From IMG/VR virus record IMGVR_UViG_2923323785_000006, positions 1 through 16,386 of that record: a DNA stretch of 16,386 nucleotides. One strand, given 5' to 3'. The stretch is from a virus. Its lineage: Duplodnaviria; Heunggongvirae; Uroviricota; Caudoviricetes. A model generated the notes under the pieces. That model saw nothing but the letters and a program-made list of their open reading frames with translations. It had not been told where the DNA came from and ran no database searches. Below are positions 1 through 16,386 of the stretch, one piece after another; positions within the stretch are counted from its first letter, which is position 1; each line of letters starts with the position of its first letter. A program made the position numbers and the translations under genes.

Positions 1-88
1 TTATCTTCTGGTATTTAGCTATCCCTCATAAGTTAATTGCCGCTGAGATATCCTAAGCTCTAGCCTCTGAAAATACATTTATATTTCG

Positions 89-114
89 AAGCCCGCGATA
101 TTTTAAGCGGGCTT
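89..114 (+). terminator. Hairpin (aagcccgc / gcgggctt, 10-nt loop) followed by TTATTTTA; intrinsic terminator candidate downstream of tfa
   Basis: Seen in sequence: 8-bp GC-rich inverted repeat at 89-96 / 107-114, T-rich tract 115-122 on + strand. On the minus (tfa) strand the flank is A-rich, so function there is less certain. Confidence 0.45.
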
Positions 115-119
115 TTATT

Positions 120-701
120 TTAAACTTCAGGTATTACAGGCCACTCAATATCAGGTGCAGTTGATGTATCAACACGGTTCAGCAACACCCGATACTTTTT
201 CCAGGCTTCCAGCAATGAGGTTTCTTCCTCCGTTGCGATTTCCAGATCTACAGCATCCTGAAGTGGCGCAATATGCTCACTGGCTACCTGCATCAGGCTG
301 TTTTTTGTTTCTTCCGCCTCCCGGATCCGGAACAGTTTTTCTGCTTCTGCATCTTTCACCCAGGCTGTGCCGTTCCACTTCTGAAACTCCCCTTCCGGCG
401 ATAACCAGGTAACATTTTCCGGTAATGATCCGAGTTCAGAAATAAATAACGCGTCGCCGGAAGCCACGTCATAAACCGTTTTACCCCGATGATCTTCAAC
501 GAGATGCCACGATGACTCATCACTGTTGAAAACAGCCACGAAGCCAGCCGGAATATCTGGCGGTGCAATATAGGTACTGTTTGCTGGCAGACCTGTATGA
601 GGCGGAATATATGCGTCACCTTCACCAATAAATTCATTAGTTCCGGCCAGCAGATTATAAATTTTTATGGTCCGTGGTTGTTCACTCATTCTGAATGCCA
701 T
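120..701 (-). CDS. tfa: Tail fibre assembly protein (lambda Tfa-like, 193 aa)
   Basis: Translation [24 protein letters not shown]... is near-identical over its length to lambda Tfa as I recall it. ATG at 701..699 overlaps the stf stop (TAATG). Confidence 0.92.
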
Positions 702-2713
702 TATGCAAGCCTCACAATGTAGTTAAATGCGATGTTTTTGACGGTGTTTTCCGCGTTACCAGCAGCGTTAACGGTGATGGTGTGTCCATGTGAGCCAATC
801 GCAACAGAGTGCGTATGAGCACCAATACCGACAGTATGTGCGTGAGCACCTGCAGATGCGGCTGTGCCGCTGACACTATGAGTGTGCGCTCCTGCAGCAC
901 TTGTATTCACACTGGCCGTAGACACTACCTTATGTACTGACCCATTTTGTGACCACTGGCTGACTGCTGATGCGCCTGTGACACTATGAGTATGGTTTCC
1001 GGCACTTGCGGCTGTACCGCTCACACTGTGCGTATGCGCCCCGGTGTTATTCGTGGATTTAGTGCCGTAATCAAACGACGATGTGGTTTTCGTCCCCAAA
1101 TCCGTACTGGATGCGCTGGCGCTGTGGGTGTGCGATTTAATGCCGTCCTGTTCCTGAGACAATACGGCACGACCACTGGCAGGTTTGCCCTTAATCGTCC
1201 AGCCACGCATATCAGGGATCACGCCTGACGGATAAGCGGCTGCAAGTTTCGGGTATGCAGATTTGTCAAAAGTCTGCCCCTGCATCAGGGCATAACCAGA
1301 CGGAACGGTATCTGATGGCCACGGGATTGGTGCACCGACTGGGTAGCTTTCTGGTGGAAGATTTTTCGAGGTATAAACTTCTGCCCAGTCTTCCTCAAAA
1401 CCATAGCCATCTCTTGAGGAACGGTAGAACAGACCTCCATTTCTGTAATGTGCCTTCATCTGCAAGGTCCGGCAACTTCCGACTCCGGTATAGAAGTTAA
1501 CCAGAATATAGCTGTCGCCAGAGCGGGTGACATTGTAAGCGCCTGATTCGGCATTCCATGGAACGCCCCCATCCGCATCGGCATACGTATCCGTTGCCCT
1601 TCTGGCAAAAGCAGCCACATGCGCGGCGGTTAAAGTAATATCTTTGGAACCATCAAACTCAACACCAGAAACCAGTCTTGGCGTTTGCAGCTTTGTTGCT
1701 GTTAATGCATTACCGTTCAGACTTGCGGACAGTTTGGTTCCAATAACCAGTTCGCCGGTTGCGTTATCAATAGCAAACGGTCTTAATGTATTCCAGCCAC
1801 CATAAACATCACCTTGATTGGTAAGCAGCAGGTAAGTTTTAGCGCCATCATTACGCCATAATGCACCATACTCCCCACCTATCATTCGAATCTGATTACC
1901 ACCACGCGCTACAATTTCGTCTGTGGCAAAAAGTTTTTTGCACGACAAGTTATCGTTAACGATTAACGAATGAGACTCATAAAAACCACGCCCACTCTTA
2001 AAATCAAGGATAACGTCCGCCGCGATACATTCAGTCGCTGGATTTGTTGCCCCAAACTTATAGGTCGTATCATTAACAACGAGATCAGCACCAGGTGCGG
2101 ATATTGACAGGCCATCTTCGATAAACGCAAAAACAGGGAAAGCAGCGCCATCAACATAGAACACAGAGCGCAAATCATCGCCCTTATTACTCATCATTAT
2201 TGAGTGGATGGCTCGTTCATTGTTTTGATATTGCCAGAACATTCCATAAGCATAACGCCCCCTGTCAGTCCAGCCACCAGGCATAACAAATCCGTTAAAC
2301 TCGCAGTTATTCATCGGATCGCCTGCGGTTCGCGTTGCCGTGGTGATAATGACCCTTGATGCCAGTTCGCTTACTGAGCCAGCAGAACGCATAACAACAA
2401 CAGGGTAATATTTTCCAGATGTTGCACCTGCAGGAGCGTTAACCCGCACATAACGCATACCACGCTTATCAGCAAAGTCTGTTTTACTGACCGCGTTAAT
2501 GTTGTTCAGGAAGCGTCCCTTATCGGGTATATCAGCGCCGTTCTGGTCTTTCTGCAGACGTTTCTCAGCATTGTCATTGGCTGCTTTTACTGCCTTTGGC
2601 GTTGCCGCCAGCGTTTCAGACGTGCTGTTGGTCGCACTGCTGAGCTGTACTATCCCCTTTTTCGTCGTGCTCGCATCCTCAAGCGCCACGGCGGATGCAA
2701 TACCGGCGCGACG
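701..2713 (-). pseudogene. stf: 5'-truncated side tail fibre gene (C-terminal ~660 codons of a lambda Stf-like protein; ORF track begins at a GTG at 2689)
   Basis: Translation ...[34 protein letters not shown]... through the His-rich [15 protein letters not shown] repeats and C-terminal ...[29 protein letters not shown] matches the lambda Stf C-terminal part. Homology stops near 2700-2713 where the frame runs into a stop, so the N-terminal ~450 codons are missing. Confidence 0.88.
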
Positions 2714-2772
2714 ATGATGCGGGCCTGTGGAGTTCTGCCGATCTGACTTATGTCATTACCTATGAAATGTGA
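2701..2772 (+). pseudogene. 3' remnant of minor tail protein U gene (last ~23 codons)
   Basis: In-frame translation [23 protein letters not shown] matches the lambda gpU C-terminus as recalled; no upstream continuation. Confidence 0.6.
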
Positions 2773-2778
2773 GGACGA

Positions 2779-3238
2779 TATGCCTGTACCAAATCCAGCA
2801 ATACCGGTGAAAGGTGCCGGAACCACCCTGTGGGTTTATAACGGGAGCGGCGACTCTTATGCGAACCCGCTTTCAGACGTTGACTGGTCGCGTCTGGCTA
2901 AAGTTAAAGACCTGACGCCCGGCGAACTGACCGCTGAGTCCTATGACGACAGTTATCTCGATGATGAAGATGCGGACTGGACCGCGACCGGGCAGGGGCA
3001 GAAATCCGCCGGAGATACCAGCTTCACGCTGGCGTGGATGCCCGGAGAGCAGGGGCAGCAGGCGCTGCTGGCGTGGTTTAATGAAGGTGATACCCGTGCC
3101 TATAAAATCCGCTTCCCACCACAAGCACGCTGCCGCCACCTTTCAGGGCTGAACGCTGCCCCTTTTTACGACGCCTGCGTCGGGACAGGACAATCCGCGC
3201 GTTACCCAGCTTTATTACGGGCAAATCCCCCCGGTTAA
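2779..3238 (+). pseudogene. Major tail protein V, N-terminal fragment (~113 aa of V fused to 40 unrelated codons)
   Basis: [50 protein letters not shown]...AYKIRFP matches the lambda gpV N-terminus; identity ends near nt 3118, after which the ORF continues in unrelated sequence to a stop at 3238. GAGGA Shine-Dalgarno precedes the ATG at 2779. Confidence 0.85.
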
Positions 3239-3295
3239 CCTTGATTCTGGCCTGCGGATTTTTGACCGTGGCCCTTTTCAGCCTGGCCCTTTCCT

Positions 3296-3880
3296 TTACC
3301 AGTTTCCGGCGTACCTTTGTCTCACGGGCAACCTGTGACGCCGACTGCGATATCGCGGATGAAGCAACGCGGTTATCAGTTCATCCAGCGCGGCTGCTTT
3401 GTTCATGGCTTTGATGATATCCCGTTTCAGGAAATCAACATGTCGGTTTTCCAGTTCCGGAAAACGCCGCTGCACCGACAGGGGGATCCCGTCGAGAATA
3501 CTGGCAATTTCACCTGCGATCCGCGACAGCACGAAAGTACAGAATGCGGTTTCCACCACTTCAGCGGAGTCTCTGGCATTTTTCAGCTCCTGTGCGTCGG
3601 CCTGCGCACGCGTAAGTCGATGGCGTTCGTACTCAATAGTCCCTGGCTGGAGATCTGTCTCGCTGGCCTGCCGCAGTTCTTCAACTTCCCGGCGCAGCTT
3701 TTCGTTCTCAATTTCAGCATCCCTTTCGGCATACCATCTTATAACGGCGGCAGAGTCATAAAGCACCTCATTACCCTTGCCACCGCCTCGCAGAACGGGC
3801 ATTCCCTGTTCCTGCCAGTTCTGAATGGTACGGATACTCGCACCGAAAATGTCAGCCAGCTGCTTTTTGTTGACTTCCAT
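3296..3880 (-). CDS. nohD: Terminase small subunit Nu1 homologue with replaced C-terminus (194 aa)
   Basis: MEVNKKQLADIFGASIRTIQNWQEQGMPVLRGGGKGNEVLYDSAAV... is near-identical to lambda Nu1 up to ...AAALDELI (about residue 171), then diverges (ITALLHPRYRSRRHRLPVRQRYAGNW). No gpA large terminase gene follows. Confidence 0.9.
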   Translation of the reverse strand: MEVNKKQLADIFGASIRTIQNWQEQGMPVLRGGGKGNEVLYDSAAVIRWYAERDAEIENEKLRREVEELRQASETDLQPGTIEYERHRLTRAQADAQELKNARDSAEVVETAFCTFVLSRIAGEIASILDGIPLSVQRRFPELENRHVDFLKRDIIKAMNKAAALDELITALLHPRYRSRRHRLPVRQRYAGNW

Positions 3881-4057
3881 TGTTCATCCCACGGCCAAAA
3901 ACAGAGAAAGGAAACGACAGAGGCCCAAAAGCTCGTTTTCAGCACCTGTCGTTTCCTTTCTTTTCAGGGGGTATTTTAAATAAAAACATTAAGTTACGAC
4001 GAAGAAGAACGGAAATACCTTAAACCGGAAAATTTTCATAAATAGCGAAAACCCGCG
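3881..4057 (-). promoter_or_regulatory. cosB region (Nu1-binding R sites and IHF site between cosN and the Nu1 start)
   Basis: Reverse complement reproduces the lambda left-end leader. R-site-like repeats seen at about 3906-3921, 3946-3961 and 3999-4014 (cgtttcc(t/g)ttct motifs and their complements). Confidence 0.75.
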
Positions 4058-4069
4058 AGGTCGCCGCCC
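4058..4069 (-). promoter_or_regulatory. cosN cohesive-end sequence (GGGCGGCGACCT on minus strand)
   Basis: Plus strand aggtcgccgccc is the exact reverse complement of the 12-nt lambda cohesive end, flanked by lambda-like left-end and right-end sequence. Confidence 0.85.
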
Positions 4070-4268
4070 CGTAACCTGTCGGATCGCCGGAAAGGACCCA
4101 CAAAATGATAATAATTATCATCTACATGTCACAACGTGCATCTACGCCATCAAACCACGTCAAATAATCAATTATGACGCAGGTATCGTATTAATTGATC
4201 TGCATCAACTTAACGTAAAAACAACTTCAGACAATACAAATCAGCGACACTGAATACGGGGCAACCTC

Positions 4269-4463
4269 ATGTCAACTAAGAACAGAACCCGCAGAACAAC
4301 AACCCGCAACATCCGCTTTCCTAACCAAATGATTGAACAAATTAACATCGCTCTTGAGCAAAAAGGGTCCGGGAATTTCTCAGCCTGGGTCATTGAAGCC
4401 TGCCGTCGGAGGCTAACGTCAGAAAAGAGAGCATATACATCAATTAAAAGTGATGAAGAATGA
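4269..4463 (+). CDS. ylcI: Small basic protein (64 aa), lambda right-end / DLP12 ylcI-like; possible ribbon-helix-helix fold
   Basis: ATG at 4269, MSTKNRTRRTTTRNIRFPNQMIEQINIALEQKGSGNFSAWVIEACRRRL...; position between cos and ybcW matches the DLP12 order as I recall it. Symbol assigned by position and length, not verified. Confidence 0.6.
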   Translation: MSTKNRTRRTTTRNIRFPNQMIEQINIALEQKGSGNFSAWVIEACRRRLTSEKRAYTSIKSDEE

Positions 4464-4627
4464 ACATCCCGCGTTCTTCCCTCCGAACAGGACGATATTG
4501 TAAATTCACTTAATTACGAGGGCATTGCAGTAATTGAGTTGCAGTTTTACCACTTTCCTGACAGTGACAGACTGCGTGTTGGCTCTGTCACAGGTTAAGT
4601 AGTTTGAATGATTAGCAGTTATGGTGA

Positions 4628-4834
4628 TCAGTCAACCACCAGGGAATAATCCTTCATATTATTATCGTGCTTCACCAACGCTGCCTCAATTGCCCTGAAT
4701 GCTTCCAGAGACACCTTATGTTCTATACATGCAATTACAACATCAGGGTAACTCATAGAAATGGTGCTATTAAGCATATTTTTTACACGAATCAGATCCA
4801 CGGAGGGATCATCAGCAGATTGTTCTTTATTCAT
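4628..4834 (-). CDS. ybcW: Small prophage protein YbcW-like (68 aa)
   Basis: ATG at 4834 with GGAG 9 nt upstream; translation [40 protein letters not shown]... matches my recollection of DLP12 YbcW. Confidence 0.7.
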
Positions 4835-5119
4835 TTTGTCGCTCCATGCGCTTGCTCTTCATCTAGCGGTTAAAATATTACTTCAAATCTTTCTGTATGA
4901 AGGTTTGAGCACGTTGGCCTTACATACATCTGTCGGTTGTATTTCCCTCCAGAATGCCAGCAGGACCGCACTTTGTTACGCAACCAATACTATTAATTGA
5001 AAACATTCCTAATATTTGACATAAATCATCAACAAAACACAAAGAGGTCAGACCAGATTGAAGCGATAAAAACGATAATGCAAACTACGCGCCCTCGTAT
5101 CACATGGAAGGTTTTACCA

Positions 5120-5530
5120 ATGGCTCAGGTTGCCATTTTTAAAGAAATATTCGATCAAGTGCGAAAAGATTTAAACTGTGAATTGTTTTATTCTGAACTA
5201 AAACGTCACAATGTCTCACATTATATTTACTATCTAGCCACAGATAATATTCACATTGTGTTAGAAAACGATAACACCGTGTTAATAAAAGGACTTAAAA
5301 AGGTTGTAAATGTTAAATTCTCAAGAAATACGCATCTTATAGAAACGTCCTATGATAGGTTGAAATCAAGAGAAATCACATTTCAGCAATACAGGGAAAA
5401 TCTTGCTAAAGCAGGAGTTTTCCGATGGATTACAAATATCCACGAACATAAAAGATATTACTATACCTTTGATAATTCATTACTATTTACTGAGAGCATT
5501 CAGAACACTACACAAATCTTTCCACGCTAA
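5120..5530 (+). CDS. ybcV: DUF1398-family protein YbcV-like (136 aa)
   Basis: ORF track starts at a TTG (4997); the internal ATG at 5120 has a GGAAGG Shine-Dalgarno 8 nt upstream and gives 136 aa ([43 protein letters not shown]...), the length I recall for YbcV. Confidence 0.75.
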
Positions 5531-5820
5531 ATCATAACGTCCGGTTTCTTCCGTGTCAGCACCGGGGTGTTGGCATAATACAATGCATGTACGCGCTAAA
5601 CCCTGTGTGCATCGTTTTTAATTATTCCCGGACACTCCCGCAGAGAAGTTCCCCGTCAGGGCTGTGGACATAGTTAATCCGGGAATACAATGACGATTCA
5701 TCGCACCTGGCATACATTAATAAATATTAACAATATGAAATTTCAACTCATTGTTTAGGGTTTGTTTAATTTTCTACACATACGATTCTGCGAACTTCAA
5801 AAAGCATCGGGAATAACACC

Positions 5821-6114
5821 ATGAAAAAAATGCTACTCGCTACTGCGCTGGCCCTGCTTATTACAGGATGTGCTCAACAGACATTTACTGTTCAAAACAA
5901 ACAGACAGCAGTAGCACCAAAGGAAACCATCACCCATCATTTCTTCGTTTCTGGAATTGGGCAGAAGAAAACTGTCGATGCAGCTAAAATTTGTGGCGGC
6001 GCAGAAAATGTTGTTAAAACAGAAACCCAGCAAACATTCGTAAATGGATTGCTCGGTTTTATTACTTTAGGCATTTATACTCCGCTGGAAGCGCGTGTGT
6101 ATTGCTCAAAATAA
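5821..6114 (+). CDS. borD: Bor outer-membrane lipoprotein (serum-resistance protein, 97 aa)
   Basis: MKKMLLATALALLITGCAQQ... has a lipoprotein signal peptide with lipobox LITGC; near-identical to lambda Bor; opposite strand to the lysis genes as in lambda. Confidence 0.93.
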   Translation: MKKMLLATALALLITGCAQQTFTVQNKQTAVAPKETITHHFFVSGIGQKKTVDAAKICGGAENVVKTETQQTFVNGLLGFITLGIYTPLEARVYCSK

Positions 6115-6145
6115 TTGCATGAGTTGCCCATCGATATGGTCAGCT

Positions 6146-6607
6146 CTATCTGCACTGCTCATTAATATACTTCTGGGTTCCTTCCAGTTGTTTTTGCATA
6201 GTGATCAGCCTCTCTCTGAGGGTGAAATAATCCCGTTCAGCGGTGTCTGCCAGTCGGGGGGAGGCTGCATTATCCACGCCGGAGGCCGTGGTGGCTTCAC
6301 GCACTGACTGACAGACTGCTTTGATGTGCAACCGACGACGACCAGCGGCAACATCATCACGCAGAGCATCATTTTCAGCTTTCGCATCAGCTAACTCCTT
6401 CGTGTATTTTGCATCGAGCGCAGCAACATCACGCTGACGCATCTGCATGTCAGTAATTGCCGCGTTCGCTAGCTTCAGTTCTCTGGCATTTTTGTCGCGC
6501 TGGACTTTGTAGGCGATTGCGTTATCACGGTAATGATTGACCGCCCATGACAGGCTGACGATGATGCAGATAATCAGAGCGGATATAATCGCGGTTACTC
6601 TGCTCAC
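6146..6607 (-). CDS. rzpD: Rz i-spanin (153 aa, GTG start)
   Basis: (M)[59 protein letters not shown]... is near-identical to lambda Rz. GTG at 6607..6605 overlaps the R stop (GTGA); GGGGG Shine-Dalgarno 7 nt upstream. Confidence 0.9.
6205..6387 (-). CDS. rzoD: Rz1 o-spanin lipoprotein embedded in the +1 frame of Rz (60 aa)
   Basis: [60 protein letters not shown]: lipobox VVGC and proline-rich region, matches lambda Rz1 as recalled; lies entirely inside Rz. Confidence 0.88.
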
Positions 6608-7101
6608 TGTTGCCCCCACAAACAGACTTCACGCTCAATCTCACGACGAGTCATCAGGCCTTTCCATTGCTTACCGCCAGCGTATGTCCAGCGACGCAGC
6701 TGATCACATGCGCCTTTGATATCGCCCTGGTTTATTTTGCGAAGAAGCGTCGATGTTCTAAAATTGCCAGCACCCACGTTGTAAACGAATGAGTAAAGAG
6801 CGCCGCGCGTTGTTTCCGGTATATCGACTTTGATATACGGGTTAATTTGTCTGGCGACAGTGGCAAGGTCTTTATTCAAGAGTGCTTTGCATTCTGCTTT
6901 GGTATACGTTTTACCGAGCATGATGTCTTTTCCGGTGTGTCCGTGACATACAGTCCATACACCAACAATATCTTTGTATGGTATGTAGCTGACACCTTCC
7001 AGACCATCGTTACCACTTGGGCCAGTGATTAACACTGATGCTATAGCAATTGCTCCGCCACCAATAGCAGCAGCAACGGCTTTTCGTAATGATGGAGGCA
7101 T
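6604..7101 (-). CDS. rrrD: SAR endolysin (P21 R-type lysozyme, 165 aa)
   Basis: N-terminal signal-anchor-release segment ([20 protein letters not shown]) followed by a T4-lysozyme-like catalytic region; ATG at 7101 overlaps the holin stop (TAATG). Confidence 0.9.
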
Positions 7102-7316
7102 TATTCACCTCTCGCGGCCTTGCGCTTATCTTCTTTAATCTTGAAATAAAGGTTTGTCAGGTACGTCAGCAGGCCAAATACCAGGCTACCCAGCACACCT
7201 ATTGCTGCCCACTGTGAGGGAGTGACTTTATCGAGCAGCTGTAAAAACCAGTAACCGGCACTACCTGCTGAGGTGCCATAGGCGACTCCAGTTGTTAACT
7301 TATCCATGAATTTCAT
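7101..7316 (-). CDS. essD: Pinholin (S21-type, 71 aa, dual-start motif MKFM)
   Basis: [71 protein letters not shown]: two transmembrane segments, Lys before the second Met (holin/antiholin dual start); GAGGTGGGG Shine-Dalgarno upstream of 7316. The ORF-track extension to 7361 is rejected. Confidence 0.88.
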
Positions 7317-7361
7317 AACCCCACCTCGCAGACAAAGCGGGTGTAAATTGAGGGAATACAA

Positions 7362-7904
7362 CGTATCGCAAAAAAGCAGAAACGTAACTGACTCCGAGTC
7401 AGTGAATAACTCAGGTATTGAGTTATCAGCTAATATCGAGACTCAAAAAATGGAAAAACCAGCGCGACGGCGGGTTTAAGCTGTGTGACGAAGTAACCAC
7501 TCTTAACAGCATAACCAATTTTTTACGTACGTAAACCACTGAATGATATTTATGAGAATGCTACCGAGTGTTCAAAACATCACCACAAATACATAAGAAA
7601 ACTTCAACAAATAACCAATAAATAATTTCCAGTGTTATTTTTAGCTGGTTTAAATTAAACAGACGAATTATAGAACCACCATAAATAACAGCCATTAATA
7701 TAAATTAGCTAATAGATTTATTTTTGTTCAAATAAGAGCCATAAATAGGTTTCGATAGAAAAAGTTCAGATAAAAATAGAGATCTACTTCACAAATTAAA
7801 TGAGAAACTAAAACTTACATCTTGAAATAATCACATTGATTAGATGAATATTTATCGCGCAGTGACATCATTTTTTAATAATAGTTCAAAAAAAAGGGCT
7901 CACG
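7362..7904 (+). promoter_or_regulatory. AT-rich ~540-bp non-coding region upstream of nmpC (porin promoter / regulatory region, possible H-NS target)
   Basis: Seen in sequence: long A/T runs (7560-7900) and no credible ORF; lies between the divergent holin and porin starts. Confidence 0.4.
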
Positions 7905-9002
7905 ATGAAAAAATTAACAGTGGCAATTTCTGCTGTAGCTGCATCAGTACTGATGGCGATGTCTGCTCAGGCAGCTGAAATTTATAATAAAGACAGTAAC
8001 AAGCTGGATCTGTACGGGAAAGTTAATGCCAAGCACTACTTTTCCTCTAACGATGCAGATGATGGTGATACTACTTATGTTCGTCTGGGCTTCAAAGGCG
8101 AAACCCAAATCAACGATCAGCTGACTGGTTTCGGTCAGTGGGAATATGAATTCAAAGGCAACCGCGCTGAATCTCAAGGTTCCTCCAAAGACAAAACCCG
8201 TCTTGCATTTGCAGGCCTGAAATTCGGTGACTACGGCTCAATCGATTACGGCCGTAACTACGGTGTAGCATACGACATCGGTGCGTGGACTGACGTTCTG
8301 CCAGAATTCGGTGGCGATACCTGGACCCAAACAGATGTGTTCATGACTGGTCGCACCACTGGTGTTGCAACCTATCGTAACAACGACTTCTTTGGTCTGG
8401 TTGATGGTCTGAACTTTGCTGCTCAGTACCAAGGCAAAAACGATCGTAGCGATTTCGATAACTACACCGAAGGTAACGGTGATGGCTTCGGTTTCTCTGC
8501 TACCTATGAATACGAAGGATTCGGTATCGGTGCAACTTATGCGAAATCTGATCGTACCGACACTCAAGTTAATGCAGGGAAAGTTCTTCCTGAAGTATTT
8601 GCTTCCGGTAAAAATGCAGAAGTTTGGGCCGCAGGTCTGAAATATGACGCTAACAACATTTACCTGGCCACTACCTATTCTGAAACCCAGAATATGACTG
8701 TATTTGCTGATCACTTCGTTGCTAATAAAGCTCAAAACTTCGAAGCTGTTGCACAATATCAGTTCGATTTCGGTCTGCGTCCGTCCGTTGCTTACCTGCA
8801 ATCTAAAGGTAAGGATCTTGGAGTATGGGGCGATCAGGACTTAGTCAAATATGTTGATGTAGGTGCAACCTATTACTTCAACAAAAATATGTCTACTTTC
8901 GTTGATTACAAAATCAACCTGCTTGACAAAAATGACTTCACTAAAGCACTCGGTGTAAGCACTGATGACATCGTTGCTGTAGGTCTGGTTTACCAGTTCT
9001 AA
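7905..9002 (+). CDS. nmpC: General outer-membrane porin NmpC (OmpC/OmpF/PhoE family), intact, 365 aa
   Basis: Signal peptide [23 protein letters not shown], then [17 protein letters not shown]... and C-terminal ...VAVGLVYQF (terminal Phe, beta-barrel signature); classic enterobacterial porin motifs throughout. Confidence 0.93.
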
Positions 9003-9018
9003 TCTGATTACGAAAAAG

Positions 9019-9053
9019 ATATGTTGCGGGAGGCGTTGCCTCCCCAACATATA
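9019..9053 (-). terminator. Long hairpin (about 15 bp with one bulge) followed on the minus strand by CTTTTTCG; candidate tR'-like terminator of the late leader
   Basis: Seen in sequence: atatgttgcgggaggc / gcctccccaacatat inverted repeat; U-tract on the minus strand only; sits about 140-170 nt downstream of the Q stop. Confidence 0.5.
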
Positions 9054-9140
9054 AGTGGCTCCCTCAAGCCACTTCCTTTAGGAGCACAACCTTGCTTCTA
9101 ACTATATAAACCTTCTGTTATATATTACCCTTTATTTTTG

Positions 9141-9165
9141 GGGGCGTTGCAACGCCCCATTTTTA
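9141..9165 (+). terminator. Intrinsic terminator (ggggcg-ttgcaa-cgcccc followed by ATTTTTA), probable nmpC terminator
   Basis: Seen in sequence: perfect 6-bp GC stem, 6-nt loop, T-tract on + strand. Confidence 0.65.
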
Positions 9166-9191
9166 ATAACTTTCAGTAAACAATTGGCATA

Positions 9192-9575
9192 TTAATTAGA
9201 GTTATTAACAACGATATCCATCTCTAACCGGATATCTAATGCCATTAACATCCCTTCAATTATGCCCTCAGCCTTCTGTAACCTTTTCCCGATATAACCA
9301 TCAGAGCAGCAATGCTTACCTGCCAGTGACATGAATGTCATACCGACTACATAATAATCTACTAATAAATCGTGCAAATCGCTGTTGTTCTTTTTCAGAC
9401 GGGCCATGCACCCGCAAATGATCATCGCGTCATCGTCACAACATTGCGGGCGAGATTTTACTTTTGAAGGAATTAATCCCTTAAAACCGGCGGCAATGGA
9501 CGACCAGGTCACATCTTCATGATTATTAGCCGCCCACGCTCCCCAACGTTCAAGAACCATCTGAATATCACGCAT
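9192..9575 (-). CDS. quuD: Late-gene antiterminator Q (127 aa)
   Basis: [62 protein letters not shown]... matches my recollection of DLP12 QuuD; ATG at 9575 with GGAGAAAG Shine-Dalgarno; position directly upstream of the lysis cassette. Confidence 0.85.
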
Positions 9576-9592
9576 TAACTTTCTCCACAAAA

Positions 9593-10588
9593 TCAGGCCA
9601 GCACACCAATCGCCAGTGCGCGATCGATAAAACGAAATATCAGCTCCAGCTGGGAGCCATACTTCTCTTCAAATGCCACGGTATCCGCATGCAGTTCGTC
9701 GTGGTGTTTTCTGCACAAAGGCAGCACAAAAAGGTCATGCGCTTTTGTACCCATTCCACCCTGACCATGGCCTATCAGATGATGCGGATCATCAGCTGGC
9801 TTTCCACAACATGCACACGGCTGCGTCTTAACCCAGCGCGTGTACTGTTCATTAACCCAGCGACGACGTTTGGGGCGTAACATAAAAGACTCCGGCGACT
9901 CCGGATCCACTTTCAGCGCCAGCACCTTTTTCGCTTTATCCTGGATAATGCTGGTGGCAGGAACCGAAGGCACAAGGTCACTTTCCCGGGTGACAGACGG
10001 CAAAACAGACTTCGGTAATCTCAGTGCCTTACGGGCTGCGCTTTCCGGTAAGGCATCCGCCAGGTCATTACGAACCAGCCACCAGCACAGTTCCGGCATT
10101 GTCACGGCATGGTTATCATTAAAATCGAGATCCCGACGGACTACAGACAACACCCAATGGGCACAGTTATCCGTTGCCATTGATTCCAGCCGCTCCGTGA
10201 ACTGATCACGTAACTGATTATCGCAGTGCCAGCACAGACGGATTGCGCCCGGCGCGTGTCGCATTGTGGTCATGTTCTCGCTGTGCCAGTCGGAATGAGG
10301 CCACTGGCAGCCTTTTTCACGAAGTAACCAGCTTTCAAGACATTCCACCCCACCAGCACGACGAATCACTGCCTCATTACGGAACACGGCCCGAACGGCA
10401 GGATCATCCGCCAGCGGTTGTGATGCCGCGGGAACGGCACCACTGGCGAAAGATGAATAATGCTCCGGCTCAGGCTCCAGCAGTACACGCCCCTGCATAA
10501 ACAGGGGCATCAGCTCTGAACCGGGCCTGAACAATACGATCCCCATACGCGGGGCAATTTCAGGGGTCAGTAGTGCTCTCACGGTCAC
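9593..10588 (-). CDS. DUF968-like (YdfU-like) protein with C-terminal HNH-like metal-binding motif (about 329-331 aa; start GTG at 10588 or 10582)
   Basis: C-terminal ...[46 protein letters not shown]... has CxxC, His-His and C..HH..H spacing typical of HNH nucleases; additional CWHC motif mid-protein. Sits immediately upstream of Q, like ydfU-quuQ in the Qin prophage (from memory). Confidence 0.7.
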
Positions 10589-10589
10589 C

Positions 10590-11387
10590 TCAATGAACGG
10601 TATCGAGCAGCTTTAACAGCTCAGGGAATCGGGATTCGAAGAAATGCGGCTGCGTCTCGCGCGGATTTGCGGGACTGGTGATGTTCTTGCCGAACATGCA
10701 GCCTTTCGCTGTCAGCGACCAGAATTTTTTGATGTTGTTAATAGCGGTACGGCTGTATCGTTCGCGCTGCTCGACGATCCCCAGCTTCACCATCTGGTGA
10801 TATGCCTGATTAGCTGTCAGGCGGATACCATACTGCTTCAGCAGTGCACTCAGTGACAGCGTGGGACGGCTTGAGCCATCAGGCGCGTCAGCAGGAGCAT
10901 CAATGGCATAGCGCGGTGCCAGATTCGGTAAGCCAACAGCCTCCTGGAGTTTCTGACAGGCACCAAGCACTGAAGAGTTAGACAGGTTTAACTCCCGGCG
11001 CATAAAGTCCAGCAGAATCACGCCAGCCTGCATCTTGTCAGCAGCCTGCCCGGATAATTTTTCCGATGCGCTGGTTACCATATCGAAAGTACGGATCACC
11101 TTCAGATGGAATGACGGGCTGATCCACATTGCATAGGCATACACCAGTTCTTTGCAGACATACGTCCCCTGGTTATTTCCGCCACGAATAACGTTAACTG
11201 GCTCTATATTGACCGAGTTGCAAATCTGCAACTCGCTTATTAAACGTTCAGTTTGCTCATTGCGGAGCCAGAATGCAGGCTTATGCTTATCCAGAGAACC
11301 GGCAGCCCTGTGCAGATCGTTCAGGCTGTAACGCCCATAAGCATCACGACGAACTTCAATACCATCAATGACCATCAGATTATTCAT
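10590..11387 (-). CDS. KilA-N domain protein with ANT/KilAC-like C-terminal half (antirepressor-like, 265 aa)
   Basis: N-terminus MNNLMVIDGIEVRRDAYGRYSLNDLHRAAGSLDKHKPAFWLRNEQTERLISEL... resembles the KilA-N fold family; ATG at 11387 with AGAGGAGAAA Shine-Dalgarno. The ORF-track GTG extension to 11420 is rejected. Confidence 0.72.
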   Translation of the reverse strand: MNNLMVIDGIEVRRDAYGRYSLNDLHRAAGSLDKHKPAFWLRNEQTERLISELQICNSVNIEPVNVIRGGNNQGTYVCKELVYAYAMWISPSFHLKVIRTFDMVTSASEKLSGQAADKMQAGVILLDFMRRELNLSNSSVLGACQKLQEAVGLPNLAPRYAIDAPADAPDGSSRPTLSLSALLKQYGIRLTANQAYHQMVKLGIVEQRERYSRTAINNIKKFWSLTAKGCMFGKNITSPANPRETQPHFFESRFPELLKLLDTVH

Positions 11388-11406
11388 ACTTCGTTTCTCC
11401 TCTTGA

Positions 11407-11796
11407 TCAGGCGGCTGCACCCGCCGTTTTCTCGTACTTACTGATAGTGATCTCGACCTTCCCTTCCGGGATAACCGGTCCCCACTCCACCAGCATTCTT
11501 TTCACCTGGCTGTCGTCTTCCCACACACCCGCGTGGGTCAGGGCGTCAAACAGCGCCTTGTTATAGTTGTCCAGATCGCGGATCCGGTTATCCGGAGGAA
11601 ACAACACGATCTCCACTGAAGCAGGTGCCGACGTTGGTTTCGGCAGACGACGTAACTGCTCAACTATTGCTGTGCACGCCGCACTCTGGAATTTTCGCCC
11701 CGCCGCGCTTATCAGGCTCTTACCAGCAAATGCCCCTTTGTTGGGGTGTCGCCAGTAGGTGTTCACGCTGGGTGGAAAAGGCAGAATCAGCTTCAT
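11407..11796 (-). CDS. rusA: RusA-family Holliday junction resolvase (129 aa)
   Basis: MKLILPFPPSVNTYWRH... and RDLDNYNKALFDALTHAGVWEDDSQV match RusA catalytic-region motifs. ATG at 11796 overlaps the stop of the upstream gene (ATGA); GAGGGGG Shine-Dalgarno. Confidence 0.85.
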   Translation of the reverse strand: MKLILPFPPSVNTYWRHPNKGAFAGKSLISAAGRKFQSAACTAIVEQLRRLPKPTSAPASVEIVLFPPDNRIRDLDNYNKALFDALTHAGVWEDDSQVKRMLVEWGPVIPEGKVEITISKYEKTAGAAA

Positions 11797-12119
11797 ACTT
11801 TCAGCCCCCTCTCATGTAACCAGTGGGCTGCACGCAGCCTGGCGTTTTCCTCACCAGCAAGCAGTGCGCGGATAATCCCGGCCACCTCGCTGTCGTCGTC
11901 CTTCACCGCGGTATGAAGCGTGATGCCCCGGGCCACGCCACGCTTTATCGTGATGACGCCTTTTTTCTCCAGTGCGCGAAGATGCTCCACCGCTGCATTC
12001 ACTGAACGGTATCCCAGCATGGTAGCCACCTCCTGATTGGTTGGCGGGAAGCCACGTTCTTTCTGGTAAGAAATCAGCATATCCAGCACCTGCTGCTGGC
12101 ATTGAGTTAACGTCGTCAT
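11793..12119 (-). CDS. LexA N-terminal DNA-binding-domain-only protein (about 108 aa; no S24 peptidase domain)
   Basis: MTTLTQCQQQVLDMLISYQKERGFPPTNQEVATMLGYRSVNAAVEHLRALEKKGVITIKRGVARGITL aligns position-by-position with the LexA winged-helix domain (recalled from memory); the protein ends about 40 aa later. ATG at 12119 overlaps the upstream stop (TAATG); GGGGG Shine-Dalgarno. Confidence 0.8.
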   Translation of the reverse strand: MTTLTQCQQQVLDMLISYQKERGFPPTNQEVATMLGYRSVNAAVEHLRALEKKGVITIKRGVARGITLHTAVKDDDSEVAGIIRALLAGEENARLRAAHWLHERGLKV

Positions 12120-12370
12120 TAAGCCCCCACGTAATTCCCTGACAGATACCACTCTTCACCCGATACAGCGCGCTTGCTGCTTTTCCGTAAACACCGCTCA
12201 CGACGCGCAAGAAAATTGTTTCGCTCTTGCTGGGAGTGGCTTTCACGGAATGCCGCCATCCACACCGTTGCAGCACGACGGTATAAGCCCCTGGACTCCA
12301 GTTCTTCCGCCTGGCGGGTCAGGCACAAAATCACCCGGGGATCGTTAGTGCCGACATAGAAATTGTGCAC
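12119..12370 (-). CDS. Small PerC/Pch-like putative transcriptional activator (83 aa, GTG start)
   Basis: Motif AEELESRGLYRRAATVWMAAF resembles the LE..G.WRRAA..W core I recall for the PerC family; family assignment is from memory and the start codon is GTG without a strong Shine-Dalgarno. Confidence 0.5.
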   Translation of the reverse strand: MHNFYVGTNDPRVILCLTRQAEELESRGLYRRAATVWMAAFRESHSQQERNNFLARRERCLRKSSKRAVSGEEWYLSGNYVGA

Positions 12371-12406
12371 AGGTCTGGATTCACGAACTGGTTGCGGTTC
12401 CGGCTC

Positions 12407-12607
12407 CTACGGTATCTCAGTCAGCCGCGGGAAATGTCTGCGTGTATCCCCTTCACAACGGTGAGCCACACGCCCACTCTGACGTAACTTGCTTGCTGAC
12501 TGCAGAACGCGCTGTCGTGAGTAACCTGCAAAAGCATCAGCAATGTCTCCGGAAGTACACCCCGGATGGGCTTCAATGAATTTCTGAACGTCATTCAAAA
12601 GACTCAT
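12407..12607 (-). CDS. Small hypothetical protein (66 aa), possible winged-helix DNA-binding fold; first gene of the minus-strand operon
   Basis: ATG at 12607 with GGGGGTGA Shine-Dalgarno 6 nt upstream; MSLLNDVQKFIEAHPGCTSGDIADAFAGYSRQRVLQSASKLRQSGRV... The ORF-track extension to 12730 is rejected (Arg/Gln-rich, no ribosome-binding site). Confidence 0.45.
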   Translation of the reverse strand: MSLLNDVQKFIEAHPGCTSGDIADAFAGYSRQRVLQSASKLRQSGRVAHRCEGDTRRHFPRLTEIP

Positions 12608-12849
12608 GATCACCCCCTGAATCCTGCCGGGATCTGGCTGTAGTCCACGTTGTCGTAACTGGCTTTGAAGTACGGGTCTTCGCGTTTTTCGGTGTACGTG
12701 CTGACTATTCTGCAGGAAGACTATGGACAATTACTGACTCTTGCCGGTGAACCTGACGGAAAACTACGCGCAGCAGGTCATTAATATCGTTCTTAATAAA
12801 CTGATTATTTATCTCATCACTGAATATCTTTATATAGTGAGGACTTATT
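12608..12849. promoter_or_regulatory. Divergent intergenic region between the minus-strand (nin/Q/late) and plus-strand (yfdQ...int) operons; presumed promoters, no repressor gene
   Basis: No ORF with repressor features on either strand; AGTGAGGA Shine-Dalgarno for the first plus-strand gene at 12836-12843; promoter hexamers not confidently assignable by eye. Confidence 0.4.
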
Positions 12850-13674
12850 ATGTCTCAGAACTTAGACGCAACCGCAATTAATCAAATCCATGCCCTTATT
12901 TCTGCTCAGGGTGTTAATGAAATTATCAGTAAGATTTGTGCCGATGCTGTGGCATTGCCTGAGAATTTCCGCATTCATGATCTGGAAAAATTTAATTTAA
13001 ATCGCTTCCGTTTCCGTGGTGCGCTTTCCACTGCCAGCATCGATGACTTTACCCGTTATTCTAAAGATCTTGCAGATGAAGGCACCCGCTGCTTTATCGA
13101 TGCCGATAATATGCAAGCCGTCAGTGTGCTTAACCTGGGTACTATTGATGAACCAGGTCACGCAGATAACACCGCCACTCTCAAACTGAAAAAGACAGCA
13201 CCGTTCTCTGCCCTGTTGTCTGTTAACGGCGAGCGTAACTCCCAGAAGTCACTGGCAGAATGGATTGAAGACTGGGCCGACTACCTTGTGGGCTTTGATG
13301 CTAATGGTGACGCCATTCAGGCAACCAAAGCGGCTGCGGCGATCCGTAAAATCACAATTGAAGCGAACCAGACCGCTGATTTTGAAGATAATGACTTCAG
13401 CGGCAAACGCTCCCTGATGGAGTCTGTCGAAGCGAAGACCAAAGACATTATGCCAGGGGCATTTGAATTTAAATGCGTTCCGTTTGAAGGTCTGAAAGAA
13501 CGTCCATTTAAATTACGCCTCAGCATTATCACTGGCGATCGTCCTGTACTGGTTCTGCGCATTATTCAGCTGGAAGCGGTGCAGGAAGAAATGGCTAACG
13601 AATTTCGTGATCTGCTTGTTGAGAAATTCAAAGACAGCAAAGTAGAAACCTTTATTGGTACTTTCACCGCCTGA
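12850..13674 (+). CDS. yfdQ: YfdQ-like protein (DUF2303-type, 274 aa)
   Basis: [21 protein letters not shown]...; length and sequence match my recollection of CPS-53 YfdQ; first gene of a four-gene cluster. Confidence 0.75.
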
Positions 13675-13686
13675 TTTCATTACTGC

Positions 13687-13710
13687 AAATGCCCCTGCGG
13701 GGGCATTTAT
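13687..13710 (+). terminator. Hairpin (tgcccc-tgcg-ggggca) followed by TTTAT; candidate attenuator or terminator between the first two cluster genes
   Basis: Seen in sequence: aaatgcccctgcgggggcattt near-perfect inverted repeat directly after the yfdQ-like stop. Confidence 0.5.
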
Positions 13711-13801
13711 GGAAACGTAATTAACTCAATAATCACCGGATGGTGAGGGCTTCCTTTTACCAGAATTCAGCGCGGTGCAGTGCATACACGTGGAGAACAA
13801 A

Positions 13802-14338
13802 ATGTCATTTATTAAAACTTTTTCCGGGAAGCATTTTTATTATGACAAGATAAATAAAGACGACATCGATATTAACGATATCGCGGTTTCCCTTTCAAAT
13901 ATCTGTCGCTTTGCCGGTCATCTTTCGCACTTCTACAGCGTCGCCCAACATGCGGTTCTTTGCAGCCAGCTGGTGCCGCAGGAATTTGCTTTTGAAGCGT
14001 TAATGCATGATGCAACAGAAGCGTATTGCCAGGACATTCCCGCACCACTGAAACGCCTTCTTCCTGACTATAAACGGATGGAAGAAAAAATAGACGCCGT
14101 AATCCGTGAGAAATACGGGTTACCCCCAGTTATGAGTACACCCGTGAAATATGCCGATCTCATCATGCTGGCAACCGAACGCCGCGATCTCGGGCTTGAT
14201 GATGGCTCTTTCTGGCCTGTACTGGAAGGCATCCCGGCAACAGAGATGTTCAACGTGATTCCACTGGCACCGGGTCATGCCTACGGGATGTTTATGGAAC
14301 GTTTTAACGATTTATCGGAGTTACGCAAATGCGCATGA
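13802..14338 (+). CDS. yfdR: HD-domain phosphohydrolase, YfdR-like 5'-deoxynucleotidase (178 aa)
   Basis: ATG at 13802 with GGAGAA Shine-Dalgarno; HD-domain metal-binding signature ...FAGHLSHFYSVAQHAVL...MHDATEAY...; length equals K-12 YfdR as recalled. The ORF-track GTG start at 13775 is rejected. Confidence 0.85.
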   Translation: MSFIKTFSGKHFYYDKINKDDIDINDIAVSLSNICRFAGHLSHFYSVAQHAVLCSQLVPQEFAFEALMHDATEAYCQDIPAPLKRLLPDYKRMEEKIDAVIREKYGLPPVMSTPVKYADLIMLATERRDLGLDDGSFWPVLEGIPATEMFNVIPLAPGHAYGMFMERFNDLSELRKCA

Positions 14339-14691
14339 ATGTTTTCGAAATGGAAGGGTTTCTTCGCGGGAAATGTGTACCGCGAGATCTGAAAGTGAAC
14401 GAAACAAATGCTGAGTACCTGGTACGTAAATTCGACGCGCTTGAAGCTAAATGTGCGGCACTGGAAAACAAAATAATACCAGTGTCAGCTGAACTGCCAC
14501 CAGCAAATGAAAGTGTTCTGTTATTTGATGCTAATGGAGAAGGCTGGCTGATTGGCTGGCGTTCTCTCTGGTACACCTGGGGACAAAAAGAAACCGGAGA
14601 ATGGCAGTGGACATTTCAGGTCGGGGACCTTGAAAACGTCAATATCACTCACTGGGCAGTAATGCCAAAAGCACCGGAGGCTGGAGCATAA
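14329..14691 (+). CDS. yfdS: YfdS-like protein (120 aa)
   Basis: MRMNVFEMEGFLRGKCVPRDLKVNETNAEYLV...; overlaps the upstream stop by 10 nt, and its stop overlaps the next start (TAATG). Confidence 0.7.
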   Translation: MRMNVFEMEGFLRGKCVPRDLKVNETNAEYLVRKFDALEAKCAALENKIIPVSAELPPANESVLLFDANGEGWLIGWRSLWYTWGQKETGEWQWTFQVGDLENVNITHWAVMPKAPEAGA

Positions 14692-14996
14692 TGACCACAT
14701 TTACCAATAAAGAACTGATTAAAGAAATCAAAGAACGAATCAGCAGCCTAGAGGTTCGAGACGATATTGAGCGCCGTGCTTATGAAATCGCACTCGTATC
14801 TCTGGAAGTAGAGCCAGATGAACGCGAAGCCTATGAATTATTCATGGAAAAGCGTTTCGGTGACTTAGTAGATCGTCGGAGAGCAAAAAACGGCGATAAC
14901 GAATACATGGCATGGGATATGACTCTCGGTTGGATCGTCTGGCAGCAACGAGCTGGTATCCATTTTTCAACAATGACACAGCAAGAGGTGAAATAA
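14691..14996 (+). CDS. yfdT: YfdT-like protein (101 aa)
   Basis: MTTFTNKELIKEIKERISSLEVRDD...; start and stop both share bases with the neighbouring genes (TAATG junctions). Confidence 0.7.
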   Translation: MTTFTNKELIKEIKERISSLEVRDDIERRAYEIALVSLEVEPDEREAYELFMEKRFGDLVDRRRAKNGDNEYMAWDMTLGWIVWQQRAGIHFSTMTQQEVK

Positions 14997-15367
14997 TGGA
15001 GCCATACAGCCTCACACTCGATGAGGCCTGTCAGTTTCTTAAGATATCCAGACCAACCGCCACCAACTGGATACGAACAGGCCGCCTACAGGCAACACGT
15101 AAAGATCCAACCAAGCCAAAATCTCCTTACCTCACAACACGGCAAGCTTGCATTGCGGCGCTTCAGTCTCCGCTGCATACTGTCCAGGTGAGCGCGGGTG
15201 ATGGCATAACAGAGGAAAGAAAATGTCACTCTTCCGCAGAAATGAAATATGGTATGCCTCGTATTCGCTCCCGGGCGGGAAACGAATTAAGGAATCTCTT
15301 GGCACAAAGGACAAGCGGCAAGCTCAGGAGTTGCACGACAAGCGAAAAGCAGAACTCTGGCGAGTAG
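14996..15367 (+). CDS. Excisionase-like HTH protein (AlpA/Xis family); 3' end uncertain, reading frame overlaps int by 145 nt
   Basis: ATG at 14996 with GAGGTGA Shine-Dalgarno; [32 protein letters not shown] resembles excisionase-type HTH domains; position immediately upstream of int. The tail beyond about residue 65 may be a frameshift artefact. Confidence 0.55.
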
Positions 15368-16386
15368 AAAAGCTAGGGGATTTACCTGATGTCACTTTTG
15401 AAGAGGCCTGCCTAAGATGGCTTGAGGAAAAAGCTGATAAAAAATCTCTCGATTCAGATAAAAGCCGGATTGAGTTTTGGCTTGAACATTTTGAGGGTAT
15501 AAGGCTTAAAGATATCTCGGAGGCAAAGATTTACTCTGCTGTAAGCAGAATGCATAACAGAAAGACGAAAGAAATATGGAAACAGAAAGTTCAGGCCGCC
15601 ATCAGGAAAGGTAAAGAACCGCCTGTTTATGAACCAAAGCCAGTATCAACTCAGACAAAGGCAAAGCATCTTGCCATGATAAAGGCCATTCTCCGTGCTG
15701 CAGAACGCGACTGGAAGTGGCTGGAAAAAGCGCCTGTCATCAAGATACCAGCGGTCAGAAACAAGCGAGTCAGATGGCTGGAAAAGGAGGAAGCAAAACG
15801 CCTTATTGATGAGTGCCCCGAACCACTGAAATCTGTCGTCAAGTTTGCGCTGGCAACTGGTCTGAGAAAGTCGAACATCATAAATCTGGAATGGCAACAA
15901 ATCGACATGCAGCGACGAGTTGCCTGGGTGAATCCAGAAGAGAGCAAATCAAACCGCGCCATTGGTGTGGCGCTGAACGATACCGCCTGTAAAGTGTTGC
16001 GTGATCAAATAGGCAAGCATCACAAATGGGTGTTTGTACATACCAAGGCGGCTAAGCGAGCAGATGGAACATCAACGCCTGCGGTCAGGAAGATGCGCAT
16101 CGACAGCAAGACATCATGGCTATCAGCTTGTCGTCGTGCAGGAATTGAAGATTTCCGTTTCCATGACCTCAGACACACCTGGGCAAGCTGGCTGATCCAG
16201 TCAGGCGTCCCATTATCTGTGCTTCAGGAAATGGGCGGATGGGAGTCCATAGAAATGGTTCGTAGGTATGCTCACCTTGCGCCTAATCATTTGACAGAGC
16301 ATGCAAGGAAAATAGACGACATTTTTGGTGATAATGTCCCAAATATGTCCCACTGTGGAATTATGGAGGATATAAAGAAGGCGTAA
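15223..16386 (+). CDS. intD: Tyrosine site-specific integrase (P21/DLP12 IntD-type, 387 aa)
   Basis: [50 protein letters not shown]...; C-terminal catalytic motifs ...[39 protein letters not shown] (R..H-x-x-R...Y). GAGGAAAG Shine-Dalgarno; the stop codon is the last 3 nt of the window. Confidence 0.93.

Follow-up and report, generated by a model that had tools for sequence, protein, structure and literature searches.

The cos-nohD end of a probable DLP12-type prophage remnant in Escherichia coli: a near-lambda cos site beside a small terminase gene with a replaced C-terminus

Genes and features around the cos site

The window, which is the whole 16,386-nt stretch of DNA that was analyzed, contains a lambda-type cos site, a nohD-type gene for the small terminase subunit Nu1 and, beyond this gene, fragments of a lambda-type tail region (Table 1). 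The lambda map on which this description is based was built by blastn and tblastn searches of lambda against the window. No match in the window was obtained with either program for lambda 709-8062, which corresponds to A, W, B, C, Nu3, D, E, FI, FII, and the first 29 codons of Z. The sequence of gpA was found nowhere in the window with these programs, no overlapping gene for a large subunit lies adjacent to Nu1, and neither a large terminase nor a head gene appears in the PGAP annotation of the genome region that is identical to the window. An earlier note on this DNA had stated that gpA and all head genes were gone and that the element was unable to package itself, and both statements are borne out by the map. 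The matches for Nu1, cos, and the deletion are not due to chance, with E-values that are effectively zero.

Table 1. Positions of the features in the window (1 to 16,386), with strand and the basis of each assignment.
Feature	Position	Strand	Basis and remarks
Side tail fibre (N-terminally truncated) and tail fibre assembly genes, far side of the large deletion	120..2702	-	Annotation, blastn, Pfam
Inverted piece, end of U and start of V (lambda 8876-9292)	2701..3117	+	blastn 95.7%, opposite orientation; tblastn U, V; Pfam Phage_TTP_12
Internal fragment of tail gene Z (lambda 8063-8323)	3115..3375	-	blastn 96.9% identity; PGAP "phage tail protein", partial
25 foreign codons and stop: gpZ DNA, wrong frame	3296..3373	-	Lambda alignment, PGAP Z fragment
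cos and Nu1 (lambda 708-1)	3363-4069		blastn
Deletion joint CTGATA/ACCGCG, lambda 697 to lambda 8065, TA common to both partners	3374..3376	-	Alignment to lambda
Nu1 (nohD-type small terminase subunit) codons 1-169: wHTH DNA-binding domain, central helical region, most of the C-terminal region	3374..3880	-	BLASTP, Pfam, PDB
cosB R1	3905..3920	-	Identical to lambda 151-166
cosB R2, inverted R site	3946..3961	-	Identical to lambda 109-124
R3-R2 interval holding the IHF site I1	3962..4004	-	Differs from lambda at 73 (A>G) and 102 (T>C)
cosB R3 (lambda bp 50-65), substitutions C53T and G54A	4005..4020	-	Alignment to lambda
cosN, 12-nt cohesive end GGGCGGCGACCT (4069->4058, minus strand)	4058..4069	-	Exact lambda; flanking bases too
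Late region upstream of cos (ylcI, ybcW, ybcV, bor, rzpD)	4070..6606	-	Lambda 45967-48502, 98% identical
cosQ heptamer GGGTCCT, termination signal	4093..4099	-	Identical to lambda 48473-48479 (alignment); lambda distance to cosN kept

The order of these pieces shows that an illegitimate deletion joined Nu1 codon 169 to Z codon 30 through the shared TA. With it, gpA and all head genes were lost, and the Nu1 ORF now ends in 25 codons that are read out of frame. Additional rearrangements, namely the inverted U/V piece and the U-to-stf joint, removed most of the tail genes.

Regarding the source of the DNA, the chromosome of E. coli MB06101 is 100% identical to positions 3000-4500 of the window, and its annotation places the window inside a prophage with tRNA-Arg/intD on one side and ompT-envY-ybcH-nfrA on the other, which is the DLP12 site. 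Integration at argU (tRNA-Arg) with intD, together with ompT-envY-ybcH-nfrA on the far side, was found when the identical MB06101 region was compared with K-12, and the late region quuD-(porin)-essD-rrrD-rzpD-bor-ybcV-ybcW-ylcI-cos-nohD corresponds to that of K-12 DLP12 in gene order and orientation. Besides the chromosomal site (argU/intD; ompT/envY/nfrA) and the late order from essD through rrrD, rzpD, bor, ybcV, ybcW, ylcI, and cos to nohD, the likeness extends to the cos and Nu1 sequences of K-12 DLP12, which are about 98-99% identical to those of the window. The prophage remnant in MB06101 is approximately 20 kb in size and has an annotated integrase gene, while its annotation includes no lambda-type replication genes. 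Based on these findings, we consider that a lambdoid prophage of the DLP12 type very probably decayed at the argU tRNA gene and that the region is its cos-nohD end; its cos can probably still be cut, but it would not be an efficient transducing device.

The two prophages differ in several respects. In K-12 DLP12, NohD is full-length (181 aa) and is followed by the first ~300 bp of gpA joined to tfa (lambda 1018/22119), whereas the break in the window is located inside Nu1 at lambda 697 and has gpZ as its partner. R3 carries one substitution in K-12 DLP12 and two in the window, and the early region of the window prophage, with yfdN-yfdT-like genes, is of a type unlike that of K-12 DLP12. A Nu1 homologue that lies beside a lambda-type cos without gpA, and the C-terminus of which has been replaced after a deletion into tail-fibre DNA, is present in the K-12 prophage Qin as nohA (189 aa). 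Its joint, GAATATA/ACCGCGCTG, leads into stfQ and again shows TA/ACCGCG as in the window. The break in Qin is at residue 176 (lambda ~720) with stfQ as the partner, in contrast to residue 169 and gpZ in the window, and the chromosomal sites are different. The replaced C-terminus of Nu1 beside cos, to which the earlier note had drawn attention, is therefore not new, since nohA of the reference strain shows it too: a remnant of this kind is already known, and a cos with a tail-damaged small-terminase gene is an ordinary, previously described form of prophage decay.

The exact Nu1-Z joint was found in 3 of 5426 complete E. coli genomes, MB06101, HKUOPY1, and L3452210II, and the exact 194-aa protein on 45 contigs in public data. 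The joint is located at the DLP12 site in MB06101 and HKUOPY1; in L3452210II, it lies in a gene neighborhood of another type, the annotation of which still includes the tail genes U to K. The allele itself is of little weight, being one rare version of the classic DLP12/Qin remnant.

The cos site and its likely use by a helper terminase

When the reverse complement of the window was aligned with the lambda cos junction and K-12 DLP12, the window showed no difference from lambda between -16 and +52 relative to the nick sites. The claim that the 12-nt cosN had been preserved was confirmed, since the match is exact at 4058-4069 and the alignment to lambda shows no disabling change. Upstream, cosQ is a highly conserved element of 7 bp (PMC4669245), and I1 is located between R3 and R2 (PMC4669245); the order R3-I1-R2-R1 of cosB, the inversion of R2, and the spacing are all as in lambda. 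The accompanying claim that the R sites are preserved was slightly generous: R2 and R1 are exact, but R3 carries C53T and G54A, so that 2 of its 16 bases are changed (GGTATTTCC in the window, GGCGTTTCC in lambda) and TATTTCC replaces the CGTTTCC of lambda, with the cosN-to-R3 spacing unchanged. Further differences from lambda are at 73, 102, 134, 145, 176, and 183, together with a 1-nt deletion near 138, each of which occurs in at least one other aligned prophage or phage, and those at 73 and 102 are common to complete lambda-like phage genomes.

The two changes in R3 raise the question of whether the site is dead, i.e., whether two adjacent substitutions, combined with the loss of the cognate terminase, have made the cos unrecognizable and the region inert. 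R3 (bp 50-65), in which TerS contacts bp 55-63, is the most critical R site, as described by Murialdo and Feiss (PMC9026076), and single transitions in it may be severe (PMC9026076). C53 and G54 are conserved among the three R sites of lambda, and the double change is very rare, having been found in the window and one IMG/VR contig only. However, bp 53 and 54 are outside the contact core of bp 55-63 and also outside bp 56, 58, and 59, the positions at which packaging mutations are known (PMC9026076). Each change occurs singly elsewhere, C53T in phage 2H10 and K-12 DLP12 and G54A in phage PhiR42_1 and Qin; the genomes of the two phages, 2H10 and PhiR42_1, are complete, and their Nu1 and A genes are intact. 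Considering, in addition, that R2, R1, cosN, cosQ, and the spacing are intact, a dead cos is unlikely, and we consider it likely from the sequence and from the behavior of related sites that a lambda-type terminase cleaves the cos of the window. The cleavage could be weakened by the double change because R3 is the most critical R site and the double change is so rare.

Evidence for the use of a closely related site was obtained from crosses between lambda and DLP12. Lambda recombines with a 3.35-kb patch of DLP12, half of the joints adjoin cos, and all tested recombinants were viable, including those that had acquired R, Rz, or nu1 of DLP12, and the authors proposed that the exchange is promoted by breaks at cos (De Paepe et al., PMC3945230). 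Recombinants between lambda and the DLP12 cos, within a 3.5-kb patch, were also recovered by Poteete et al. (PMC545071). In agreement with these crosses, cosB and cosN in the window would most likely still be bound and nicked, respectively, if an infecting or co-resident phage provided a lambda-type terminase. A double-strand break at this cos would then stimulate recombination between the incoming phage and the patch, in which lysis genes, cos, and nu1 are exchanged. The cos sites of cryptic prophages are also carried by lambda qsr'/qin recombinants, and cutting of the E. coli chromosome by terminase at an endogenous site was reported in the early 1990s.

A different outcome, proposed in the earlier note, is that a helper phage packages the DNA adjacent to cos. 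Its first step, the recognition of cos by a helper terminase, is plausible because the cos and nu1 of K-12 DLP12 are found in viable lambda recombinants and the defective prophage Sp4 is packaged in trans, but the idea itself was already known. In E. coli O157 Sakai, Sp4 has a disrupted nu1 and is packaged; the terminase most likely comes from Sp14, the cos of which is identical (PMC2669165). Sp4 resembles the prophage in the window in that both are defective and lambdoid, combine a good cos with damage to the gene for the small terminase, and need a terminase in trans. In contrast to the window, Sp4 is nearly complete, excises and is amplified, its nu1 was broken by an IS instead of a deletion, and its terminase is provided by a co-resident prophage with the same cos.

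The second step, i.e., the packaging of adjacent DNA, was overstated. Packaging from cosN heads toward Nu1, which corresponds to lower coordinates of the window, and subsequently toward the catalase/ferritin-like, ompT, envY, and nfrA genes. The termination of packaging in lambda requires a downstream cosQ/cosN (PMC4669245), and only one place in the MB06101 chromosome matches a lambda-type cos/Nu1. Because there is this single cos match and the remnant is only ~20 kb, packaging in situ would meet no terminating cut and would continue into the host chromosome. The most to be expected is abortive packaging from one end, first toward the tail fibre genes and then toward catalase, ompT, and nfrA, and the locus would not serve as an efficient transducing device.

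The possibility that the locus behaves as a hitchhiker in the manner of cos satellites or lateral transduction, with a helper terminase cutting cos and packaging the adjacent chromosome or an excised element into infectious particles, needs to be weighed against these data. The near-intact cos and the presence of an integrase gene are consistent with it, as are the precedents of Sp4 (PMC2669165) and the cos-type PICIs. These PICIs (e.g., EcCICFT073, with Rpp) are similar to the remnant in being chromosomal, in lacking terminase and capsid genes, and in using helper TerS/TerL at a lambda-like cos; however, they have a repressor, a replication module, a packageable size, and Rpp, through which TerS is redirected to a cosB that is specific to the PICI. 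The annotation of the MB06101 region includes neither a PICI regulatory or replication module nor an rpp-type gene, and the gene adjacent to cos is a true Nu1 homologue. Unlike the cosB of a PICI, that of the window is of the lambda type and would compete with the cos of the helper instead of redirecting its terminase. Besides the absence of a second lambda-type cos/Nu1 match on the chromosome for termination (PMC4669245), the annotation of the ~20-kb remnant lists no lambda-type replication genes, no rpp-like redirecting gene, and no capsid-size genes. These features weigh against the packaging of the locus into infectious particles. The one-ended "doc" particles that are formed from excision-defective lambda lysogens are rare and poorly infectious, which is a further point against it. 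Efficient transducing particles from the locus are unlikely, and we hold infectious hitchhiking of either form to be most improbable. By analogy with DLP12, recombination fueled by a break at cos is better supported than transduction.

Recombination with lambda has been documented for a DLP12-type remnant and packaging in trans for a related prophage. These examples call for some caution, since lambda-type cos sites that can be cleaved are present in E. coli strains together with patches of lysis and terminase genes, and incoming lambdoid phages can break them and recombine with them.

The altered Nu1 protein

The ORF at 3296-3880(-) encodes a protein of 194 aa. Over residues 1-173, 168 of 173 positions are identical to lambda Nu1 (BLASTP, E 5e-127) and 171 of 173 to K-12 NohD (BLASTP), while homology to lambda Nu1 at the DNA level stops after residue 169 (...ALDELI). 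The Pfam model PF07471 Phage_Nu1 is covered at positions 1-164 of 164 (E 3e-101), and the PDB chains 1j9i and 6hn7 span residues 1-68 and 1-98, respectively. Residues 1-47 are those of lambda and K48R is the sole change in residues 1-68, in agreement with the earlier statement that Nu1 is intact through its DNA-binding N-terminal domain. The replacement of the tail was likewise recognized correctly, but its extent was not: 12 residues are lost instead of ~10 and 25 are gained instead of ~23. As a consequence of exchanging residues 170-181 for 25 out-of-frame residues, the C-terminal TerL(gpA)-binding region (the last ~40 residues) is not intact. In an AlphaFold2 prediction from the single sequence, the mean pLDDT was 56.6 and values were below 50 for residues 162-194, so that the structure predicted for the new tail is of low confidence.

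Since the reading frames of Z and Nu1 differ by one base, the new tail is an accidental read-through and an accident of the deletion, with no new domain. It would have no evolved function.

The suggestion that the altered Nu1 interferes with a helper terminase is conceivable as speculation that draws on a statement in the literature, in which the C-terminal ~40 residues of TerS were proposed as the TerL-binding domain and a 30-residue C-terminal truncation was found to bind TerL poorly (PMC9026076). In its strongest form, the truncated protein (residues 1-169 and the unrelated tail) is a retained dominant-negative TerS that binds cosB or joins helper TerS, does not recruit TerL, and thereby lowers the burst of lambda-type phages. 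The DNA-binding and oligomerization parts are intact, satellites are known to target TerS, as Rpp does in structure 6hn7, and Nu1 forms that end at residue 169 are common in E. coli, with exact 169-aa products on 327, 272, 50, and 43 contigs. This frequency could mean selection rather than pure decay. On the other hand, only 12 of the ~40 C-terminal residues are gone and binding may persist; the tails are many and different but share a single starting nucleotide, a pattern that indicates a mutational hot spot instead of selection at the protein level; the protein would be made only if the late genes of a silent prophage were transcribed; and the exact allele occurs in just the three complete genomes named above. 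A retained dominant-negative function is very unlikely, and the reading of the tail as an accident of the deletion is preferred.

Recurrent breakpoints at lambda 697 and lambda 8064

A side observation concerns the joint itself, in which two recurrent breakpoints meet, each precise to the nucleotide: lambda 697, for which at least 16 partners were found, and lambda 8064, for which there were at least 11. The Nu1 variants in the protein cluster of the ORF all diverge after one particular residue. The left end was defined from the DNA of these variants and by scanning IMG/VR for ...CTGATA followed by a base other than C. The break at lambda 697/698 (…CTGATA/CCGGGGTTGCT) has at least 16 downstream partners in E. 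coli prophages and viral contigs, which include Z 8065, C 5574, A 2489, L 13980, J 16140, 17231, 17306, and 17971, tfa 22290, and several stf/fibre and unidentified sites. At lambda 8064/8065 in Z (…CCATTA/ACCGCGTTGCT), there are at least six left partners, i.e., Nu1 697, A 1269, A 1643, B 3887, and two non-lambda sequences, and the left flank of this break is joined to five right partners, one of which is inverted. Approximately 300 of 4066 matching genome records have no place that covers at least 80% of a 281-bp Nu1-A query, and most of those sampled among these records end at lambda 696-702.

All partners of lambda 697 for which the native lambda sequence may be checked have TA, ATA, or GATA directly left of the retained base, and across both breakpoints TA is found at the break in almost every partner with a checkable native sequence. 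The motif CCG[GC]G(G)TTGCT directly follows the Nu1 break and follows the Z break after one base; in lambda, it occurs at these two places only, against 0.29 expected in shuffled sequences, for a motif that was defined post hoc.

These regularities are consistent with a sequence-directed process that repeatedly "beheads" lambda-type prophages and leaves cos with TerS(1-169), the truncated TerS of which might be kept as anti-phage decoys, a scenario that we put forward tentatively and consider unlikely. Such a process might be driven by a nuclease, nickase, or recombinase with site specificity or by a site at which replication stalls strongly; alternatively, an insertion element, since lost, may have been removed with its flanks by microhomology end-joining. 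IS excision by IEE with a flanking deletion and microhomology joining (PMC9943667) is a hypothetical cause. No resident IS was found at lambda 697 in more than 30 loci inspected, and the right flank of the lambda 697 site was never found with a foreign left flank in IMG/VR, the 65 matches being plain allelic variants. If the hot spots reflect a defined enzyme or sequence signal, they would provide a concrete mechanism for the loss of head and terminase genes during the domestication of lambdoid prophages.

Several other origins of the breakpoints were considered. Mosaic boundaries at lambda 697 or 8063 were rejected because homology runs through both points in ~110 phage records. Four mechanisms, namely crossover by a Pin/Gin-type invertase, cutting by terminase at a pseudo-cosN, restriction at CCNGG, and cleavage by RusA 5' of CC, were compared with the joints by eye; each probably fits some joints and not others, and on this basis none was accepted as a general explanation. 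Regarding CRISPR self-targeting at the gpZ endpoint, a repeat-spacer-repeat query of 5426 E. coli genomes returned no true spacer match; the best match, of 89%, was in two pieces and covered the repeats only. An ATG PAM is present at lambda 8055-8057, which would place the break at protospacer positions 6-8, and this reading is unsupported, not refuted.

The deletion endpoints are mainly of specialist interest as hot spots common to many independent prophage deletions. A third joint in the window, at U 8876, also reads TA/CCGGCG.

Recurrent breakpoints in Nu1 and gpZ

The deletion that joins the small-terminase gene Nu1 to the tail gene Z in the window uses a position in Nu1 at which many other rearrangements also end (Table; a slash marks the break throughout). 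The lambda-like sequence runs up to ...GATGAACTGATA/, where at least 16 independent deletions end, each with a different partner to its right; these partners include four sites in J as well as Z, C, A, L, tfa and stf/fibre genes. TA, ATA or GATA was present at the break in all of the partner sites that could be checked, and hundreds of contigs carry the exact 169-aa truncated Nu1 products.

The gpZ breakpoint, CCATTA/ACCGCGTTGC, is also recurrent, with at least six left partners and five right partners, all different, and one of the latter joined as an inversion. The motif CCG[GC]G(G)TTGCT lies shortly downstream of both hot spots and is absent from the rest of lambda.

The 21-mer that ends at the Nu1 breakpoint was also found as an exact match in a Myxococcales MAG (L042, JBBQEB010000006.1) and in Erwinia sp. 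(L043, NZ_JBJGXA010000008.1), neither record being labelled E. coli, and is followed in each by a different non-lambda sequence. Contamination or mis-binning of a contig could account for these matches, as could a genuine relative.

Table. Coordinates of the breakpoints and associated features.
Feature	Window	Lambda	Other loci	Remarks
Inverted piece, end of U and start of V	2701-3117			417 bp; joints at ~2701 and ~3116
Nu1 breakpoint	3374-3376	697/698	L015-L048	
gpZ breakpoint	3375	8063-8065	L005, L008, L010, L049-L051, L117-L121	
Porin gene, nmpC position	7905-9002 (+)			between quuD and essD
Early/left part of prophage	9593-15367		L002 20594-26062	
Nu1-Z joint identical to that of the window			L006, NZ_CP076527.1 1937470-1950788	E. 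coli L3452210II
GIY-YIG nuclease family gene			L009 11360-11848	E. coli HKUOPY1
nohA, Qin			L122 5799-6368	K-12 MG1655

Prophages sharing the Nu1-Z joint

The joint in E. coli L3452210II encodes the same protein as that in the window (WP_001594847.1). In this prophage the tail module seems complete (U, V, G, T, H, M, L, K and others) and lysis genes are also kept, but head genes are absent; by gene content it is a head-less, tail-only lambdoid element. The same joint is present in the DLP12-site prophage of E. coli HKUOPY1, in which a gene of the GIY-YIG nuclease family is flanked by a ybcV-like gene and lysis genes; a link between this gene and the breakpoints is pure speculation.

Related joints in the window and in Qin

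In the window, the Z fragment is separated from the tail-fibre remnant by an inverted U/V piece, whose U joint has TA/CCGGCG once more and whose V/Z joint has CCC microhomology. K-12 NohA, a Nu1 homologue of 189 aa in Qin, departs from Nu1 past residue 176, and its joint, GAATATA/ACCGCGCTG, leads into stfQ, with a further TA/ACCGCG, similar to the gpZ hot-spot sequence.

Comparison with K-12 DLP12

The porin gene of the window is an intact ORF of 365 codons; in K-12 DLP12, an IS5 lies directly downstream of the porin gene. The early part differs between the two prophages: where K-12 DLP12 has ybcN/ninE/ybcO, the window has a gene for a LexA-family protein together with genes of the KilA-N, DUF968 and yfdN/yfdQ/yfdR/yfdT-like types, which makes the window prophage a mosaic.

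Among phage records, 'Campylobacter phage CJLB-4' (MW057783.1; phages collection, H126) is 100% identical to lambda across Nu1/A, and has the appearance of either lambda contamination or a mislabelled entry.
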